This document shows positions 4,503 through 51,214 of a DNA stretch of 56,618 bases, piece by piece. Position numbers and translations under genes: made by a program. The notes beneath the pieces were generated by a model. That model made no database searches. It was not told the origin of the DNA and saw nothing but the letters and a program-made list of their open reading frames with translations. Each line of letters starts with the position of its first letter. Position 1 is the stretch's first letter. Origin of the DNA: a virus; UHGV virus genome UHGV-2050067. One strand, 5' to 3'.

Positions 4503-5555
4503 TCAAATAGCGCCAGCGCGTGTATCGCGTAGCGTTTTTGGTTTAAGCAGGAAATCAAGTGTCGCTGTGAAGCCATCGCCGAAGTAAAAGTCTGAAGCCT
4601 TGCTCTTGAATGCTTCAAAGTAGGCGATAAAGCCGTTAATGCTTTTGTCTTTCAGGTAGTCAGTGAACGCATAGATCTTGCGTTCAAGATCCCGGTCCAG
4701 TTCAGCAGGTGGCAACAGGCCATCAAACGTGATGTTAAACTCATTTACCACATCGGCAGCGTTTACAGTAACTGACAGATTGCGCCATTGTTCAGCATCA
4801 GCAAGATACCCATCGAATTTAGTTACCCGGCAAATGTTAACAGGCTTAGGCACTCCACCACGGCTACGCCATTGCGTCAAAGCCCACTCAATCACTAATG
4901 TGATCTCATCCTCCGTATACGCTTTACGTGTTTTTGTTTCTGTCAGTAGTTCGATGAATGGCTTCGCATCACGACATTTGCATCCTGCCTTGTCGTTGTA
5001 GAAGGCCAGGCAACGCAACGCCGCTTCGTTTACGCCATCATGATTGACCATTTTTTGTTCATTTTCGACAATACACGAAGTGTATATATCTTTTTCTCTT
5101 TCTTCTTCTACTTCTAATTCTAATTCATGACCCTTTCCTGACCCGGTCATGACCCTATCATGACCTTTTTGTGTTGGATTGATTAACTTTTCTAATTTTA
5201 ATTGCTCCTTAGCTGTGTTTATGGCGGCCCTGTACGCGCTTTTAGAAGTCATTGATTGGTCAAGCCTTTTCAATAACTTTAAACAAGTTATGTGGCCTTG
5301 AGAACATTCAAACAAACCAATTTCGATGAAGTATTTCATCATTTCTTCTATACGTTTTTCAGTCGATCCGACGTTTCGCGCAATGATTCTCGCGTCATGT
5401 CGTAGGTCAAAAGTCAGATTGTGCTGATCTACGTCATAAGTTATTAGTTCGAGGCAATACCAATAAAGCCCGTACCCTTCCAGGCCATAATCAAGCAAGA
5501 CGTTTTGAAGTTTTTCATCGCGGTTCGCATCGCTATCATGCTTAAACCACTTCAT
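4503..5555 (-). CDS. replication initiation / replisome organizer protein (O-like role)
   Basis: 350-aa ORF; N-terminus MKWFKHDSDANRDEKLQNVLLDYGLEGYGLYWYCLELI resembles the phage replisome-organizer N-terminal domain; iterons and an AT-rich tract lie inside the gene. Confidence 0.6.
   Translation of the reverse strand: MKWFKHDSDANRDEKLQNVLLDYGLEGYGLYWYCLELITYDVDQHNLTFDLRHDARIIARNVGSTEKRIEEMMKYFIEIGLFECSQGHITCLKLLKRLDQSMTSKSAYRAAINTAKEQLKLEKLINPTQKGHDRVMTGSGKGHELELEVEEEREKDIYTSCIVENEQKMVNHDGVNEAALRCLAFYNDKAGCKCRDAKPFIELLTETKTRKAYTEDEITLVIEWALTQWRSRGGVPKPVNICRVTKFDGYLADAEQWRNLSVTVNAADVVNEFNITFDGLLPPAELDRDLERKIYAFTDYLKDKSINGFIAYFEAFKSKASDFYFGDGFTATLDFLLKPKTLRDTRAGAI
5080..5166. other. candidate origin of replication (AT-rich tract plus three TCATGACC iterons) inside the organizer gene
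   Basis: tcatgaccc at 5125 and 5147, tcatgacct at 5158, preceded by tgtatatatctttttctctttcttcttctacttctaattctaattc; analogous to lambda ori inside O. Confidence 0.4.
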
Positions 5556-5558
5556 AGA

Positions 5559-5891
5559 TCATTCCTCCGGTAACATCACTACATAGACATCACTGAACGC
5601 ATCAAGACGACAAACAAACCCTTTATGCATTAACGCGGCGAAGGCATCATGTACCGTATGAACAGGAAGTTCACACATTTTTGCGATTTCTTGTCGTGAT
5701 ACCATGACGTGACGGCGGTTATCTGCCTTTTCAGCCAGAGCCATTAAGACCAGTTTTTGAATCAGGCTGTTAAGTTTTACTTTCCATACTTCGCTAATCA
5801 TGTTCATGCTCATTGTATTTTCTCCTATGGTTAAAATGAACGCGCGGGCGGGCATCCCATTAGCATTAGATAGCAGTGACTGACCGCTCAA
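5559..5891 (-). CDS. winged-helix HTH protein, first gene of the leftward early operon
   Basis: 110-aa ORF; LIQKLVLMALAEKADNRRHVMVSRQEIAKMCELPVHTVHDAFAALMHKGFV resembles HTH_36 domains of replication proteins; divergent from the CI-like gene. Confidence 0.5.
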   Translation of the reverse strand: MSGQSLLSNANGMPARAFILTIGENTMSMNMISEVWKVKLNSLIQKLVLMALAEKADNRRHVMVSRQEIAKMCELPVHTVHDAFAALMHKGFVCRLDAFSDVYVVMLPEE

Positions 5892-5921
5892 CAGATCCCG
5901 CCGTTGCGTGATATTTGTTTT

Positions 5922-5955
5922 TCGCTTCGCAGCGACACCGGATTTTTAAAGAGCT
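5922..5955 (-). promoter_or_regulatory. candidate nut-like site (boxA-like GCTCTTTAAAAA plus short hairpin) on the minus-strand transcript
   Basis: Minus strand reads GCTCTTTAAAAA, then 8 nt, then tcgc-tgcgaa-gcga stem-loop, upstream of the 5891 start. Confidence 0.3.
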
Positions 5956-5994
5956 TAAGTGGTTGGCCTTTTGTGCTTTCCTTTATCTTTTTTC

Positions 5995-6058
5995 TTGCAT
6001 CATTGCAACTATGGCCTTACCTTGTTTGCAAGTTTACAGAATGGCGTTGACAGGTCAA
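5995..6058. promoter_or_regulatory. immunity switch region: three palindromic operator candidates spaced about 26 bp apart
   Basis: TTGCAtcatTGCAA (5995-6008), cTTGtttgCAAg (6021-6032), TTGACaggTCAA (6047-6058) between divergent early and repressor genes. Confidence 0.45.
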
Positions 6059-6117
6059 GGCTTTAAAAATACGTTTTGTGACTTGTATCAAACTTTTTTA
6101 GGTTATAGGGTAGCGAC

Positions 6118-6765
6118 ATGAAAACAAAATGGTATGACTTAGCAAAACAACTCATGCGGGCGCAGGGCATGAGCCAGGATTCATTGGCTGATCTCATGGG
6201 GATAACCAAAGGTGGCCTTTCGCACTGGCTGAACGGTCGCCGTGAGCCGAATCTTGAAGATATTGCGCGTATCATGCGGGCGCTTGGGCGTCGGCAATTC
6301 ACTGTTACTCATGACGGAATGGTCATTGATGATTCTGTTTCTAACACGTTGCCGGGAGCGCCACCGCGTGATTTAGGCAGTTACCCGGTTGTTGACTGGA
6401 AGGATGTAGCAAACAATATGGAAGGCACACACCGATCAACATTGCCACACGTTGCTACTAGCGTTATTTGTTCGGATGATAGTTATTGGCTGGTTGCTAA
6501 AGGTGAATCAATGAACGCACCGCAAGGGTTGAGCATCCCGGCGGGGACTATGATACTTGTTGACCCGCACGCGCCAGCTATTGACGGAAAACTTGTTATA
6601 GCACAACTGGAGGAAGGGCAGATACCTACGTTTAAACAGTTGATTATTGATGGAGGCCGAAAACTTTTGCGTTCACTAAATCCGTTGTATCCGCCGATCC
6701 CTATGAATCCAGAGTCAAAAATCATTGGCGTGGTTGTTGACGCGAAGATCGTAAACCTGCCATAA
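6118..6765 (+). CDS. CI-like phage repressor (HTH_XRE plus S24 LexA-like peptidase domain)
   Basis: 215-aa ORF; N-terminal HTH (QDSLADLMGITKGGLSHWLNGRREP); C-terminal S24 motifs (VAKGESMNAPQ Ser, IDGKLVIAQL Lys). Confidence 0.85.
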   Translation: MKTKWYDLAKQLMRAQGMSQDSLADLMGITKGGLSHWLNGRREPNLEDIARIMRALGRRQFTVTHDGMVIDDSVSNTLPGAPPRDLGSYPVVDWKDVANNMEGTHRSTLPHVATSVICSDDSYWLVAKGESMNAPQGLSIPAGTMILVDPHAPAIDGKLVIAQLEEGQIPTFKQLIIDGGRKLLRSLNPLYPPIPMNPESKIIGVVVDAKIVNLP

Positions 6766-6770
6766 ACATT

Positions 6771-6796
6771 AGCCGCCGAATGGCGGCTTTTCTTTG
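6771..6796 (+). terminator. rho-independent terminator downstream of the repressor gene
   Basis: agccgcc-gaat-ggcggct hairpin followed by tttctttg. Confidence 0.6.
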
Positions 6797-6888
6797 CCTG
6801 GAAAACACCAAAACGTAAACAGAAAACGTTATTTATTATTTAAATATCAATGGGATATAAAATATTTTAAAAAAGTATACAAAATGGA

Positions 6889-6917
6889 TTGACTCGGTGT
6901 TTTACGGGGCGTATATT
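6889..6917 (+). promoter_or_regulatory. sigma70-like promoter (pL-like) for the rightward operon
   Basis: TTGACT, 17-bp spacer, TATATT; about 45 nt upstream of boxA. Confidence 0.5.
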
Positions 6918-6960
6918 GCGAGTCAAAGGAGGTAGCAAGGCAGGGAAAGGGAAGGTTATT

Positions 6961-6998
6961 TGCTCTTTAACAATCTGGTCAGCCGCTGGAAGTGCGGC
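6961..6998 (+). promoter_or_regulatory. nut-like site: boxA (TGCTCTTTAACAA) plus boxB-like hairpin
   Basis: boxA at 6961-6973 is identical to the rrn-type boxA consensus; gccgc-tggaagt-gcggc stem-loop at 6982-6998; between promoter and N-like ORF. Confidence 0.5.
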
Positions 6999-7055
6999 AA
7001 TTAACGAAGATGATTTTTTTATTAAGTATCATCAAGGATATACGGAGATCAGATT

Positions 7056-7346
7056 ATGAGCGTTACAATCATGTATGGCAAATGTGACAGTAAACTGAAT
7101 GCCAGGGAACGCAGAAAAATAAAAAGAGAAAACGAAAGAAAATCATCACCTGCAATTAATAAAACAGACAATGTGGATAAAGCTATTCGATTTGCAAACG
7201 AGGAAAGGTGCAAACCAAATAGCATTAAAGAACGTCGCAAAGGATCAGTAAAATGGTATATGGAAAATGAAAGCGGCAGCTACTACCACGCAACGCAACC
7301 ACGCCATTTAGGGGAAAAACCCCTGGATAAAGTCCGCTATCATTAA
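7056..7346 (+). CDS. N-like transcription antiterminator candidate (arginine-rich motif)
   Basis: 96-aa basic ORF with N-terminal NARERRKIKRENERK arginine-rich motif; first gene after the promoter and nut-like site. Confidence 0.4.
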   Translation: MSVTIMYGKCDSKLNARERRKIKRENERKSSPAINKTDNVDKAIRFANEERCKPNSIKERRKGSVKWYMENESGSYYHATQPRHLGEKPLDKVRYH

Positions 7347-7376
7347 TACAAAATGTAAACATTCGGAGGTGACATT

Positions 7377-7496
7377 ATGGTTATTCAGGCGCTCCAATTC
7401 AAACTAGCAGTAGCGGAAATGCTTCACGATGCCGAAATGTGGAGCGCCGCGAATAAAGCCTTATGCATAGTGTTAACAGCGAAGGAGGCTAGTTAA
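7377..7496 (+). CDS. small ORF (39 aa), hypothetical
   Basis: ATG at 7377 preceded by SD cggaggtgacatt; stop overlaps the HNH start (taATGg). Confidence 0.3.
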   Translation: MVIQALQFKLAVAEMLHDAEMWSAANKALCIVLTAKEAS

Positions 7497-8026
7497 TGGC
7501 TTATTCAAAACATGGAATGACGCACACAAAACTTTATGAAGTTTTCAAAGGAATGAAAACGAGATGCAGGAAAAGCGATAAGAATCCAAAAAATAAACAC
7601 TATAAAGATAAAGGTATAGCCATATGTGATGAGTGGTTGAATGATTCATCAAGGTTTATCGAGTGGGCTTTAAATAACGGTTATCAGGAAGGGTTAGAAA
7701 TAGACAGGACTGATAACGATAAAGGTTACTCCCCGGATAATTGCCGATGGGTTACACATGCTGAAAACATGCGTAATACATGTAAAACCAGAATATTAAC
7801 AGTGAATGGGGAAACTAACACAATACATTATTTTTCTGAAAAATACAGTATAGGTGAGGACACCATACGTTCAAGATTACGTCGCGGCTGGAGTCATGAA
7901 GCCGCTGTACTTCTTCCTTTAAGAAAGGGGAAACGATGTGAAGAAAGATTTATACAAAAAATTGTGGCTAATTCAGCAGCAATTAAAAGCGCCAAAATCT
8001 CAACGCAACTCATACGGTGGTTATAA
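7496..8026 (+). CDS. HNH endonuclease
   Basis: 176-aa ORF; DRTDNDKGYSPDNCRWVTHAENMRNT is an HNH-type motif; strong SD gaaggagg; 3' end overlaps the erf start by about 89 nt. Confidence 0.65.
   Translation: MAYSKHGMTHTKLYEVFKGMKTRCRKSDKNPKNKHYKDKGIAICDEWLNDSSRFIEWALNNGYQEGLEIDRTDNDKGYSPDNCRWVTHAENMRNTCKTRILTVNGETNTIHYFSEKYSIGEDTIRSRLRRGWSHEAAVLLPLRKGKRCEERFIQKIVANSAAIKSAKISTQLIRWL

Positions 8027-8590: not shown

Positions 8591-8591
<1 letters not shown>
7938..8591 (+). CDS. erf: Erf-family single-strand annealing recombinase
   Basis: 217 aa, GTG start; NSYGGYNYRSAEDILEAVKPLLEG...LIGDRYYIKATA...GATSSYARKYALNGLFCIDDAKD closely parallels P22 Erf as recalled. Confidence 0.85.
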
Positions 8592-9013
<422 letters not shown>

Positions 9014-9544: not shown

Positions 9545-9654
9545 GCTTTGCAAAAATTGCCGCATTGCTTGCGGCTTTATCTATCGCTGTGCTGTATCTC
9601 AGCGTATCTCTTTATATCACGGTAGCGATTATTAAACTCATTACTAACATGTGA
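9541..9654 (+). CDS. mini-ORF, 37-aa hydrophobic peptide
   Basis: MSFAKIAALLAALSIAVLYLSVSLYITVAIIKLITNM; start overlaps the upstream stop. Confidence 0.35.
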   Translation: MSFAKIAALLAALSIAVLYLSVSLYITVAIIKLITNM

Positions 9655-11803: not shown

Positions 11804-11996
11804 ACACTATAAAGAATGGAAAATTCCAGAATCAGCAACAAAGGCAGCGCCAGGAAATTTTTCTGGCGTTTATTTTTATATGGATGGCAAATGGTATTTC
11901 GGCAGCAGGCCGGATCACTATTATCAGGAAATATGCAAGCCTCACGTATGGGATATTAAAGAGCGCGTGAAAGGCGGTGTGATTGAGGACGTTTAG
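11793..11996 (+). CDS. hypothetical protein (67 aa)
   Basis: ORF track. Confidence 0.35.
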   Translation: MKFKHYKEWKIPESATKAAPGNFSGVYFYMDGKWYFGSRPDHYYQEICKPHVWDIKERVKGGVIEDV

Positions 11997-14733: not shown

Positions 14734-14892
14734 AGTTTACAAAATGGCGTCATTGCGTGATATGGATCACATAATGGCGCTTTTCGCCTTGTTCTGGTGT
14801 ATCCATTTTGTATACTTCAAGCAAACAAAATGCTCTTTAAAAATCCGGCAGCGCTGAAATGCGTAGAAATCACCTGAAAAGGAGAGAGCATT

Positions 14893-15083: not shown

Positions 15084-15689
15084 ATGCAGAACCCTAAAAA
15101 ACCTATAAGACGCCGTTGCAAATGCTGCGGCGTTTTTTTTGAGCCTAAATATCACAATCAAACGTGGTGCAGCGATGAATGTCTGGAAGAACTGAAGTTT
15201 GATCAGCTATGCCGCGATCGTGAAAAGGCTATGAAGGCTATGGAGCGGAAGAAACGCCGTGATAGCCAGCGGGAAGAACGCAACCGGAAACGGAAACAGT
15301 TAAATCCGCGTAGCTACTGGATTAAACAGGCACAAAACGTTTTTAACGCTTATATACGCGAGCGTGACGCGGGTCAGCCGTGTATATCTTGCGGGACTTA
15401 TTATTACGAACAATGCGGCGCTGATGCTGGACACTGGCGCACAGTAGCGGCAGCCGGACACCTTCGCTTTAACGAGGATAACGTAAACCTACAATGCCGA
15501 CATTGCAATCAGGTATTAGACGGCAATGTTGAGTTATACAGAATAAATTTAATAAAAAAAATAGGATTAGAAAGGGTGGAGGCATTAGAAAATAATAACG
15601 AAACTCACAAATGGACGATCGAAGAATGTAAGGAGATCATTAAAGTTTATCAGGCGAAATTAGACGCCTTAAGGAGAAAGGCGGCATGA
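15084..15689 (+). CDS. ninG: NinG/Rap-like recombination-associated protein
   Basis: Internal ATG at 15084 of track ORF 14994-15689; Cys-rich (CKCCG, CSDEC, CISCG, CRHCN) with basic region; directly followed by rusA. Confidence 0.6.
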   Translation: MQNPKKPIRRRCKCCGVFFEPKYHNQTWCSDECLEELKFDQLCRDREKAMKAMERKKRRDSQREERNRKRKQLNPRSYWIKQAQNVFNAYIRERDAGQPCISCGTYYYEQCGADAGHWRTVAAAGHLRFNEDNVNLQCRHCNQVLDGNVELYRINLIKKIGLERVEALENNNETHKWTIEECKEIIKVYQAKLDALRRKAA

Positions 15690-34960: not shown

Positions 34961-35320
34961 TTAGTTGAAATACGCATCAACTCTGTGGGCCACGTTTACA
35001 CCATAAGACTCGCCATCCTTAAACGCATTTAGTGACGCTTTATTGTTTTTTGCCGCCTCTTTTAATCCATTGTACTTGCTATTAAGATCTTTCCATTCAG
35101 CGGTTTTTTCTAATACTGGCTTCATTGCGTAATGAATACAGCCAACGTTAAATGGCATTTCCAGATCACCATTACCGTCACCATGCTTTATATCGTACAA
35201 CTGAGCATTATGCGCACATTCACGAAGTATGTATTTTGCGGACGGAGAGTGCTCAGCATTAGCATTAAGCGCAACTCCTGCAAGTACCGCCACGATTAAG
35301 ATTTTTGCCAGACTTTTCAT
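34961..35320 (-). CDS. secreted protein moron (signal peptide, two Cys), unknown function
   Basis: 119 aa; N-terminal MKSLAKILIVAVLAGVALNANA; opposite strand to flanking tail genes. Confidence 0.6.
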   Translation of the reverse strand: MKSLAKILIVAVLAGVALNANAEHSPSAKYILRECAHNAQLYDIKHGDGNGDLEMPFNVGCIHYAMKPVLEKTAEWKDLNSKYNGLKEAAKNNKASLNAFKDGESYGVNVAHRVDAYFN

Positions 35321-35500: not shown

Positions 35501-35570
35501 TATACAAAATGTGTTCACTGAAGTAAATCCATTTTGTATAAAATAGAGGCATAGATCACATTTTGTATGA
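35501..35570. promoter_or_regulatory. inverted TACAAAATG / CATTTTGTA motif cluster in divergent intergenic region (candidate moron promoter/operator)
   Basis: tatacaaaatg (35501-35511), ccattttgtataa (35529-35541), cacattttgtatg (35558-35570); same motif recurs at other junctions. Confidence 0.4.
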
Positions 35571-48926: not shown

Positions 48927-49000
48927 TACATTTTGTGTAAGCAGAAAATGCAACACAGATCACAAAATGGTAGAATTATTCCGTTAATTAACAAAATGGA
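48927..49000. promoter_or_regulatory. TACAAAATGG-family motif cluster upstream of tail fiber gene / lipoprotein moron
   Basis: tacattttgtg (48927), atcacaaaatgg (48958), aacaaaatggagtcattgcg (48990) immediately before the fiber ATG. Confidence 0.35.
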
Positions 49001-49009
49001 GTCATTGCG

Positions 49010-51214
49010 ATGATTTACACAACTGGAACAATTGCCATCAACGGCAATACTGTTACAGGCACGGGAACAAACTTTTCCGCGCCGCTTTCTCTTATTCGTG
49101 TAGGTTGCACGCTCATTGCTGTTGGCAATCCGGTACAGATCTTTACCATCACAGAAATTAAAAGCGGCACTGAACTGTCAGTGACGCCAGCGGCTAACCC
49201 CGCCATCCCTGCCGGGACAAAATTCAGCATCCTGCTATCTGACTCGATCTCAGTTGATGGGCTTGCTCAGGATGTGGCTGAAACCCTGCGTTACTACCAG
49301 GGCAAGGAAACAGAGATCGCCGCCGCTGTCGAGTGGTGGGAGGATTTTGGCGGCGAAGGTCAGTTGGATCAGCTTCTTACCAACATTCGCGCAGAGACAG
49401 CCAAATCAACCGCCAACGCTCAAAAAACAGGATCCGACAAAAACGCAGCAGAAGCGTCAAAAACAGCGGCTGCAAAATCCGCCACGGCAGCGAAAACATC
49501 AGAAACCAACGCTAAGGCAAGTGAGACGGCAGCGAAAACAAGCGAAACCAACGCCAAAACATCAGAGAACAGGGCGCAAAAATATCTGAATCAAATGGGA
49601 AGGCTTACCAGCCCAATGGTCCAATGTGCTTGGCCTGTTAATACTAGCGGTAATGGCGCTTACGTTAAGATTGCTAAACTTAGCGATCCAAAGTTTTCAG
49701 AGTGCCACTTAACGCTAATGGTTACAAATGGCGGTGGCTACGGTTTAAGTTACGGGAATATTGACTTTATAGAGATCTCCGCTCGAGATCTTAACGACAC
49801 AGGCGAAGTAACCAGTGAAAATATATCTAAATTTTTAAGTATTCGCCGACTCGGTTCACCAAACCTTCCCAATAATAGTCAAATGCGTTACGGCCTGGTT
49901 AAAGGTGACGGCTATATCGAGGTCTGGTGCTACCAGCGATCTTATATTCAAGGCACAAAAGTAGCGGTGCTGGCGCAGACTGGCAACACGGAATTATACA
50001 TTCCTGAAGGATTTGTTAAACAAGACAATGCACCTTCAGGATTTATTGAAAGCCCAGCAGCAAGGATTTACGACCAGGTAAACAAACCTACTAAAGCAGA
50101 TTTAGGCCTTTCTAATGCTATGCTTATAGGCGCTTTTGGTCTTGGCGGTAGCGGTCTTACTTTGGATGGTAAAATGACCGATAAGGAACTACTACAAGAG
50201 CTAAGGGCGAAAGGTGGGTGTTTCTGGAGGTCAGGAAAACCAACAGGTAGCGAATCAACAATTTTCAGCCACGGTTCTGGTATATTCTCGCGGTGCGGCG
50301 ATACGTGGTCAGCTATTAATATCGATTACGAAAGCGGTAGAGTAAAGATTTACTCTAGTAACGATAATAGACTCAACAATGGTACTTTTAACATAAATGA
50401 GCTATACGGAACCAAATACAAGCCGTCGAAATCGGATGTTGGACTTGGTAACGTAACTAACGATGCGCAGGTGAAAAAATCCGGCGACATTATGTCAGGT
50501 GATCTGTCGATCACTAAAGCAACACCTTCACTATACCTGCGTTCAAAAAGTGGAACCGCCCATGTATGGTTCCAAAATGAGGATCAGTCGGAACGCGGCG
50601 TTATTTTTGCGCCTACAAATACTGATACGCTTGGAGAAGTTCACATCAGGGCTAAAAACGCAAAAGGTGAAACAAACGGTGATCTTATTGTTCGCCACGA
50701 TGGGAGGGTTGAAGTCCGTGATCTCTCAGTAGAGTATAAGATTAAAAGCGCCACCGCAGAAGTTAGCGGTAATATCACATGCCAGACACTTCACCAATCA
50801 TCTGACCGCGACCTTAAAGATAACATTCAGGTTATAGGTGAAGCCACTGAATTAATCCGCAAAATGAACGGGTACACCTACACGCTCAAGGAAAACGGCC
50901 TTCCTTATGCTGGCGTTATTGCACAGGAAGTAATGGAGGCGCTACCGGAAGCCGTAGGATCGTTTACTCGTTACGGTGAAGAATTGCAGGGTCCGACCGT
51001 TGACGGCAACGAGCTACGAGAAGAAACACGTTACCTTAATGTTGACTATGCGGCGGTGACTGGTTTACTTGTCCAGGTGGCACGCGAAACGGATAACCGC
51101 GTCACCGAACTGGAAGAGGAGAACGCAAGCCTGAAAGCTAACATTGCCGCAATGGATGAGCGGATAGCAAAACTTGAAGCGCTTATCAGTCAGTTGACCG
51201 GAAGCGAAGAATAA
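49010..51214 (+). CDS. tail fiber protein with C-terminal intramolecular chaperone (S74-type) domain
   Basis: 734 aa; Ala/Thr-rich repeats (KTSETNAKASETAAKTSETNAKTSE); C-terminal DLKDNIQVIGEATELIRKMNGYTYTLKENGLPYAGVIAQEV and final coiled coil typical of autoproteolytic chaperone domains. Confidence 0.75.
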   Translation: MIYTTGTIAINGNTVTGTGTNFSAPLSLIRVGCTLIAVGNPVQIFTITEIKSGTELSVTPAANPAIPAGTKFSILLSDSISVDGLAQDVAETLRYYQGKETEIAAAVEWWEDFGGEGQLDQLLTNIRAETAKSTANAQKTGSDKNAAEASKTAAAKSATAAKTSETNAKASETAAKTSETNAKTSENRAQKYLNQMGRLTSPMVQCAWPVNTSGNGAYVKIAKLSDPKFSECHLTLMVTNGGGYGLSYGNIDFIEISARDLNDTGEVTSENISKFLSIRRLGSPNLPNNSQMRYGLVKGDGYIEVWCYQRSYIQGTKVAVLAQTGNTELYIPEGFVKQDNAPSGFIESPAARIYDQVNKPTKADLGLSNAMLIGAFGLGGSGLTLDGKMTDKELLQELRAKGGCFWRSGKPTGSESTIFSHGSGIFSRCGDTWSAINIDYESGRVKIYSSNDNRLNNGTFNINELYGTKYKPSKSDVGLGNVTNDAQVKKSGDIMSGDLSITKATPSLYLRSKSGTAHVWFQNEDQSERGVIFAPTNTDTLGEVHIRAKNAKGETNGDLIVRHDGRVEVRDLSVEYKIKSATAEVSGNITCQTLHQSSDRDLKDNIQVIGEATELIRKMNGYTYTLKENGLPYAGVIAQEVMEALPEAVGSFTRYGEELQGPTVDGNELREETRYLNVDYAAVTGLLVQVARETDNRVTELEEENASLKANIAAMDERIAKLEALISQLTGSEE

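Follow-up and report, generated by a model that had tools for sequence, protein, structure and literature searches.

A probable N-type early antitermination module with three nut sites in the viral genome UHGV-2050067

The viral genome UHGV-2050067, analysed here as one stretch of 56,618 nucleotides (nt) that we call the window, carries between positions 6889 and 7346 an early promoter, a boxA followed by a boxB-like hairpin, and a gene for a small basic protein. We consider it very probable that this unit is an N-type early processive antitermination module of an mEp021-like temperate coliphage of immunity group I. The antitermination system as such is already known: it has been characterised by experiment in a relative with 93% identity in the protein, and 48 genomes of the group have been catalogued as carrying it. 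The unit and the two further nut sites that go with it comprise the following elements.

6889..6917, plus strand: sigma-70-type early promoter TTGACT-17-TATATT (-35 at 6889-6894, -10 at 6912-6917)
6961..6973, plus strand: nutR1 boxA, TGCTCTTTAACAA, identical to the E. coli rrn boxA
6982..6998, plus strand: nutR1 boxB-like hairpin GCCGC-UGGAAGU-GCGGC, with a 5-base-pair (bp) stem and a 7-nt loop
7044..7047, plus strand: Shine-Dalgarno sequence GGAG, conserved, ending 8 nt ahead of the start codon (ATG) of the N-like gene
7056..7346, plus strand: N-like antiterminator gene, 96 amino acids (aa), homologue of mEp021 gp17
5955..5943, minus strand: nutL boxA, AGCTCTTTAAAAA, followed by the spacer TCCGGTG
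5935..5922, minus strand: nutL boxB-like hairpin UCGCU-GCGA-AGCGA, with leftward transcription into helix-turn-helix (HTH) and replication genes
6031..6058, minus strand: predicted leftward promoter-like site TTGACC-16-TAAACT upstream of nutL, matching the consensus at 9 of 12 positions
14831..14843, plus strand: nutR2 boxA, TGCTCTTTAAAAA, missed by the first-pass annotation of this DNA
14851..14864, plus strand: nutR2 boxB-like hairpin GCGC-UGAAAU-GCGU

The early unit and its counterpart in phage mEp021

Region 5800-7500 is matched in a megablast search by the phages mEp515, mEp044, mEp010, mEp013, mEp554, and mEp021 at 92-96% identity, and the window belongs to the mEp immunity-I coliphage group. 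Among 5426 complete E. coli genomes, 35 carry the same region as a prophage. The gene order of mEp021 is that of the window, with replication and HTH genes read leftward and the gp15 repressor gene, a terminator, gp17 (96 aa), a small open reading frame (ORF), Erf, and the single-stranded DNA-binding protein (SSB) read rightward.

According to PMC11893012 (Front Microbiol 2025), which cites Valencia-Toxqui 2023 (Arch Virol 168:92), Gp17 of mEp021 has been shown experimentally to be an N-lambda-like early antiterminator that acts on nutR1 (ahead of gp17), nutR2 (past the cytosine methyltransferase gene), and nutL (preceding the repressor gene, on the strand opposite to the other two). The same paper reports the presence of gp17 in all 48 mEp immunity-I genomes, full conservation of R17, R19, R20, and R24 with R21 in 45 of the 48, read-through that depends on Gp17 and on the arginines of its arginine-rich motif (ARM), nutR1 as the most variable of the three sites, and the dependence of the group on host Nus factors (PMC11893012). 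All three nut sites of the window lie at the published relative positions, in synteny with the mEp021 annotation. In the work of Valencia-Toxqui et al. from 2023, read-through in a green fluorescent protein reporter is said to depend on Gp17 and its arginines, and nutR2 reportedly lies more than 7.9 kb downstream of nutR1.

The N-like protein of the window has the length of Gp17 and is identical to it at 89 of 96 residues (93%); against all seven phage records its identity is 90.6-95.8% (tblastn). It has an isoelectric point of 9.9, 24 lysines and arginines, and an ARM at residues 15-28 (NARERRKIKRENER), and its densest basic stretch, residues 15-29 (NARERRKIKRENERK), holds five arginines and three lysines. 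Homologues fall into 32 clusters, almost all of them unnamed, with divergent relatives at 63-78% identity. In an alignment of 20 homologues, N15, A16, R17, R20, and R24 are invariant and R19 is nearly so; R17, R19, R20, and R24 are all present in the window's protein, and its lysine at position 21 fits the published conservation of R21 in 45 of 48 genomes. Over its full length the protein matches PHROG 271, 'anti-termination protein N-like' (E 8.7e-12), the same family that is matched by lambda N (4e-23) and P22-type N (7e-40).

Working from the letters alone, the first-pass annotation had described the promoter, an rrn-identical boxA, a hairpin with a 5-bp stem and a 7-nt loop 8 nt further on, and a 96-aa basic protein with an N-terminal arginine-rich motif. 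Each of these was found where it had been placed, and its proposal that they form an N-type unit is borne out by the identity to Gp17 and the PHROG 271 match.

The promoter agrees with the consensus at 10 of 12 positions and is among the four best of the 29 matches in the first 20 kb. Its hexamers are invariant in seven phage genomes (alignment of the intergenic region between the repressor gene and gp17), and two of the divergent relatives found through the N-like protein (L015 and L016) have TTGACA/TATAGT and TTGACA/TATATT at exactly 17-nt spacing, with the spacer sequence diverged. Hexamers and spacing that are kept while the spacer diverges are the footprint usually expected of a working promoter. 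It probably drives the nutR1/N-like operon as a functional analogue of lambda PL, with a predicted start near 6924. The boxA and hairpin begin 44 nt after the -10 hexamer, with the nut site in the leader, and the leader downstream of the hairpin is invariant up to the ATG in all seven genomes. This part of the leader also contains an inverted repeat, GATGAT-(13 nt, T-rich)-ATCATC at 7009-7035, between the boxB-like hairpin and the ribosome-binding site, again invariant in the seven genomes. By analogy with the regulation of the lambda N leader, it could help to regulate translation of the N-like gene.

Conservation and covariation of the nut sites

As an exact 13-mer, the nutR1 boxA occurs once in the window and in none of 100 shuffles, and it is found also in the rrnB leader of E. 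coli K-12. The 12-mer GCTCTTTAAMAA has three copies, at 5954 (minus strand), 6962 (plus), and 14832 (plus), where 0.04 are expected, and the three co-oriented boxA-hairpin sites of the window likewise stand against an expectation of 0.04. Each copy of the 12-mer is followed by YCYGG, a few bases, and CGCTG, with the hairpin at a fixed distance; this composite boxA-YCYGG-CGCTG pattern was derived after the sites had been seen, and its chance expectation of 0 is descriptive only. The hairpin sequences of the three sites are GCCGCUGGAAGUGCGGC, GCGCUGAAAUGCGU, and UCGCUGCGAAGCGA.

At nutL, GCTCTTTAAAAA occupies 5954-5943 on the minus strand. The first-pass annotation had noticed a mirror-image site at 5922-5955 and called it the weaker of the two; its boxA and hairpin are confirmed, but the site is in fact more conserved than the one on the plus strand. 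It is near-invariant in all relatives, the divergent L015-L018 included, and its position fits the published nutL 'upstream of gp15', the repressor gene. This site would serve a leftward operon read from the candidate promoter TTGACC-16-TAAACT, in which TAAACT is invariant and the -35 hexamer is TTGACC or TTGATC across seven genomes. The third site, nutR2, follows nutR1 at a distance of 7870 nt and is flanked by the cytosine methyltransferase gene and ninF/ninG; it is invariant in eight phage genomes, and its position too fits the published one. Across the relatives, nutL and nutR2 are nearly invariant and nutR1 is variable, in keeping with the published description.

A separate promoter for nutR2 was considered at 14790-14817 (TTGTTC-16-TATACT); its -35 hexamer matches at only three of six positions, the promoter scan did not call it, and it is unsupported. 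Just upstream of nutR2, at 14739-14763, lies one copy of a 25-nt near-repeat, ACAAAATGG[C/A]GTCATTGCG[T/A]TGAT, whose other copy is at 48991-49015.

The boxA of nutR1 occurs in two subtypes. The canonical TGCTCTTTAACAA is carried by the window, mEp044, and mEp554, and with one change by mEp013; the second subtype, CGCTCATTAA[CA]AA, is that of mEp021, where it reads CGCTCATTAACAA, and of mEp515 and mEp010, which have the degenerate form CGCTCATTAAAAA. The 8-nt spacer between boxA and hairpin at nutR1 is TCTGGTCA. The nutR1 hairpin is invariant in seven mEp genomes and identical in mEp021, whose nutL and nutR2 are identical or nearly identical to those of the window.

The leader also differs among these phages by an insertion of about 215 nt between the promoter leader and the nutR1 boxA, present in mEp021 (L001, 3630-3875), mEp515, mEp010, and the divergent relatives L017 and L018, and absent from the window (between 6946 and 6958). 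It is annotated as a tiny ORF, gp16, is flanked by the boxA-like repeats GGCACTTTAAAAA and CGCTCATTAACAA, and correlates with the degenerate boxA subtype. The insertion folds much better than its shuffles (-78.9 kcal/mol, z -2.71, 0/200), and one hairpin inside it shows compensatory changes between mEp021 and L017/L018; an Rfam search of the mEp021 leader insertion returned no family. It may be a structured leader RNA.

The nutR1 hairpin of the window, which can alternatively be read as a U.U-closed GGAAG pentaloop, appears in divergent relatives as GCAC-UGAAAA-GUGC, UCGC-UGAAAU-GCGA, and GCUAC-UGAAAU-GUAGC. Covariation was assessed in an alignment of eight distinct sequences, consisting of the window's three sites, the nutL variant of mEp515, and the variants from the divergent relatives, a small sample that mixes orthologous and paralogous sites. 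Standard pairs fill 97% of its cells, and three of the five stem pairs show double-sided changes (C-G/U-A/G-C, C-G/U-A, and G-C/A-U). The observed score was reached in none of 500 shuffles, and when the 3' arm was slid by one to three columns the pairing was 14-65% with essentially no double changes. Despite the small sample the covariation signal is clean, and it argues that the nutR1-type hairpin is real. In the invariant core, C-U-G spans the stem/loop junction on the 5' side and a G stands at the junction on the 3' side, and the aligned loops UGGAAGU, UGAAAW, and UGCGAW can be read as GGAAG, GAAA, and GCGA closed by U.U or U-A, that is, as GNRA-like. Together with the homology of the protein, the presence of the nut sites, their statistical unlikelihood, their conservation, and their covariation are established in the present analysis.

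Relation to known antitermination systems and alternative explanations

Profile alignment (hhalign) with the P22-type N of Salmonella phage SF11 (gp24; MK770415) brought the two N-termini together (E 4e-4, probability 34%) in the blocks VTIMYGKCDSKLNARERRKIKR against TVITYGKSTFAGNAKTRRHERRRK and DNVDKAIRFAN against DRVTKAISLAG. The pattern common to both is MTVxxYGK...NA[KR]xRR, continuing as ..(K/R)R. BLASTP gave 10 identities over 20 residues, or about 50%, and the remainder of the two proteins is not confidently alignable. Given the PHROG 271 membership and the P22-type profile match, with no lambda signal, the N-like protein is a remote member of the N family and stands closer to the N of P22 than to that of lambda.

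A comparable picture was obtained with the RNA. The covariance model was trained on eight mEp-type sites, the window's three among them, so that the 52-56 bits scored by these three are by construction. No fourth nut site was found by the model in the window, where the next best score was 8.8 bits. In independent tests, the model found the P22-type nutL of MK770415 (CGCTCTTTAAC-ttcgatgat-GCGCTGACAAAGCGC) over its full length at 19.9 bits, and rrnB at 14.3 bits through the boxA alone, while lambda nutL (J02459; CGCTCTTAA-aaattaa-GCCCTGAAGAAGGGC) was matched only weakly, at 7.5 bits, overlapping the annotated Nutl. As the P22-type nutL is recovered in full and that of lambda only weakly, the nut architecture is P22-like, with the P22-type nutL as its closest match. 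That site has the boxA GCTCTTTAAC, a spacer of about 8-9 nt, and a hairpin whose 5' arm is GCGCU and whose loop begins with G (GCGCUGACAAAGCGC, compared with GCGCUGAAAUGCGU in the window). It is known that boxB loops are GAAAA or GAAGA pentaloops in lambda and GACAA in P22. The P22 pentaloop is closed by U-A, whereas the window has UGGAAGU, UGAAAU, and a GCGA tetraloop; P22 has two nut sites and the window three. Rfam (E-value mode) returned no family for the nut region in 5500-7500, and only sub-threshold isrK-like and LPR69-like matches elsewhere in that interval.

With lambda the unit shares a repressor-controlled early promoter, a boxA and boxB in the leader, N as the first gene, and recombination genes downstream, as well as a small basic ARM protein of PHROG 271 and, according to the literature on the group, a dependence on Nus factors. 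Its order of repressor, terminator, promoter, nut, N, kil-like ORF, Erf, and SSB parallels that of the lambda/P22 PL operon. In contrast to lambda, with its boxA CGCTCTTA and boxB GCCCUGAAGAAGGGC, the window has an extra nut site 7.9 kb downstream and a protein without an equivalent of Trp18. The description of the unit as lambda-like in the first-pass annotation therefore stands for membership in the N family, but both the protein and the nut sites are nearer to the P22 type than to lambda itself, and the phage group is formally 'non-lambdoid'.

Several observations weigh against the assignment to the N type. Direct similarity to lambda N is undetectable, either by hhalign (an 11-residue match of 2% probability) or by BLASTP (E 12). 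The P22-type Pfam family PF25694 (N_peptide) is matched at 15.7 bits against a cutoff of 27.9; as even lambda N reaches only 16.4, the threshold is no boundary of the wider N family. Pfam PF11438 (N36) gave no match to the protein, and a PDB sequence search with it returned nothing at E up to 10; a PDB search with the P22 ARM peptide also returned nothing, probably because of chain-length limits. Residue 21 is a lysine and not the arginine of mEp021. Although the nutR1 hairpin is the minimum free energy structure (-8.8 kcal/mol), its z of -1.3 against shuffles is not exceptional, and the folding energies of the nut RNAs taken alone are unremarkable throughout (z -0.3 to -1.3). The loops differ from site to site, none being a canonical GNRA-like pentaloop, and the first 20 kb show no general enrichment of promoter-consensus matches (29 found where 40 are expected). 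With unremarkable folding energies and a promoter match that proves nothing on its own, the case rests on conservation and covariation. The experimental support belongs to mEp021 Gp17 and not to the exact sequence of the window. The supplements of PMC11893012 contain no nut sequences, and it is by position and by the description given there, not by published coordinates, that the present hairpins are equated with the boxB elements of the literature.

Three other explanations have to be weighed against the same evidence. Antitermination could be of the host-only rrn type, in which boxA alone recruits NusB/NusE/NusA/NusG (and SuhB) and both hairpin and protein are irrelevant to read-through. The identity of the 13-nt boxA with that of rrnB, and the ability of the covariance model to match the rrnB leader through the boxA alone, speak for it. 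However, E. coli rrn antitermination needs neither a phage protein nor an N-binding boxB, whereas here a covarying hairpin is accompanied by an N-like gene in a phage early operon, and only the boxA sequence is common to the two. Moreover, mEp515 and mEp010 keep the hairpin invariant despite their degenerate boxA, each of the three sites combines a boxA with a hairpin at an unchanging distance, and PMC11893012 reports read-through that requires Gp17 and its ARM arginines. We therefore consider this explanation very unlikely.

Just as improbable in our judgement is a leader element in which the hairpin controls the stability or translation of the mRNA, for example as an RNase III or autoregulatory site, with an incidental boxA and an ORF for an unrelated basic nucleic-acid-binding protein. 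Such an element would account for the ordinary folding energy, for the second inverted repeat in the leader (7009-7035), and for a protein with no Pfam match above threshold and no PDB relative, but not for the recurrence of the boxA-hairpin module at two places that do not precede the N-like ORF, for a protein that shares PHROG 271 with lambda and P22 N, or for 93% identity to an experimentally characterised antiterminator. Autoregulation and antitermination can coexist, as they do in lambda. Finally, consensus-like motifs might co-occur by chance in an AT-rich intergenic region, as the lack of enrichment of promoter-like matches and of boxA allowing up to two mismatches (4 against 2.1 expected) would permit. 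The exact 13-mer, for which 0 copies are expected, the 12-mer with its three copies, and the conservation of the elements across relatives with diverged flanks make the probability of such a coincidence negligible, and conservation together with covariation has effectively refuted it already.

Surrounding features, proposed mechanism, and implications

The N-type unit is set among the following genes and terminators.

6118..6765, plus strand: CI-like repressor gene, homologue of Rep021 (Pfam HTH_3 4.9e-13, Peptidase_S24 1.5e-18), immediately upstream of the unit
6771..6796, plus strand: intrinsic terminator with a 7-bp GC-rich stem and a T-run (TERM_1/T1/T2 in related records)
9559..9582, plus strand: first strong intrinsic terminator downstream of nutR1, GCCGCATTGCTTGCGGC then TTTATC; candidate read-through target
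14747..14785, plus strand: predicted terminator (TERM_4 in the mEp021 record), a long imperfect hairpin followed by TTTT, conserved, just upstream of nutR2
11846-11880, 15114-15140, and 19145-19170, plus strand: further candidate rightward terminators

The repressor transcript ends at the terminator at 6771-6796, which insulates the N promoter from prophage transcription. The first-pass annotation had offered read-through of this terminator as a test; since it lies upstream of both promoter and nut site, complexes loaded at nutR1 do not encounter it. In the mEp021 record, TERM_2 after gp22 is the syntenic counterpart of the terminator at 9559-9582. Rfam gave a sub-threshold match to isrK (6709-6793; 26.1 bits against a gathering score of 50) that spans the 3' end of the repressor gene and its terminator; the terminator hairpin is the most likely cause of this match.

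Directly after the N-like gene, a 39-aa ORF (7377-7496) weakly resembles lambda Kil (Pfam Lambda_Kil 21.2 bits, below the 27.6 cutoff; PHROG 2055 E 1.3e-3), which fits the content of a lambda-PL-like operon. It is followed by an HNH endonuclease gene (7496-8026; PHROG 3377, E 5.7e-48) that separates the kil-like ORF from erf. The gene is absent at that position in mEp021, where gp18 stands directly before erf, and probably represents a mobile insertion of the homing type within the operon that depends on N. In the SSB homologue (8591-9013), ten consecutive glutamines precede the acidic C-terminal tail.

The 10-mer TACAAAATGG is over-represented in the window, with 24 copies at up to one mismatch against 6.0 expected, a number reached in none of 100 shuffles. 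Copies lie at 382, 6035, 6878, 14738, 14803 (minus), 20093, 28011, 35503-35567 (three), 39080 (minus), 39474 (minus), 48961, and 48990, among others. The copy at 6878 abuts the -35 of the N promoter, that at 6035 overlaps the divergent repressor/leftward promoter region, copies flank the terminator-like hairpin before nutR2, and the cluster of three lies in the stretch that separates a minus-strand signal-peptide ORF (34961-35320) from the tape-measure gene. In relatives the copies stay invariant while their flanks vary, and they could be operator or regulatory half-sites; the literature consulted defines no operators for the CI-like repressor.

By analogy with the N mechanism of lambda and P22 and with the mEp021 experiments, the N-type unit would work as follows. 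In the absence of the CI-like repressor, RNA polymerase would start at the promoter at 6889-6917, transcribe nutR1 about 40 nt further on (boxA 6961-6973, hairpin 6982-6998), and then the gene for the 96-aa N-like protein (7056-7346), which would be expressed. The arginine-rich helix of this protein (residues ~15-28) would bind the boxB hairpin on the nascent RNA, while the perfect rrn-type boxA would recruit host NusB-NusE(S10). Together with NusA and NusG, the complex would stay tethered to the elongating polymerase, which may then resist the intrinsic terminators at 9559, 11846, and 14747. For the leftward replication operon the same protein would act at nutL (5955-5922, minus strand), and it would act at nutR2 (14831-14864) as well, where it may reload or reinforce the complex before the nin/late-regulator region. 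Within this scheme, we infer the exact protein-RNA contacts, the transcription start, and the terminators that are overridden in the present genome.

Almost every record lists the protein as a 'hypothetical protein', and naming it and marking the three nut sites improves the annotation of a common gut coliphage/prophage group; beyond correct annotation the finding matters little. To the published picture the analysis makes modest additions, namely the covariation of the stem, the loop variants, the likeness to the P22-type nutL, and boxA subtypes that track the 215-nt insertion. It is also conceivable, although we think it rather unlikely, that the boxBs of this group form a distinct RNA-recognition class, in which one ARM protein without a Trp18 equivalent accepts three different loops (UGGAAGU with 7 nt, UGAAAU with 6 nt, and a GCGA tetraloop) on a conserved, C-G-closed stem that starts CU-G. 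If so, the binding mode would differ from those of the lambda and P22 pentaloop complexes, and the perfect rrn boxA at nutR1, as opposed to the degenerate boxA of mEp021, would shift the balance between dependence on N and dependence on Nus factors. The data on covariation, loops, and boxA subtypes could guide binding and structural experiments.

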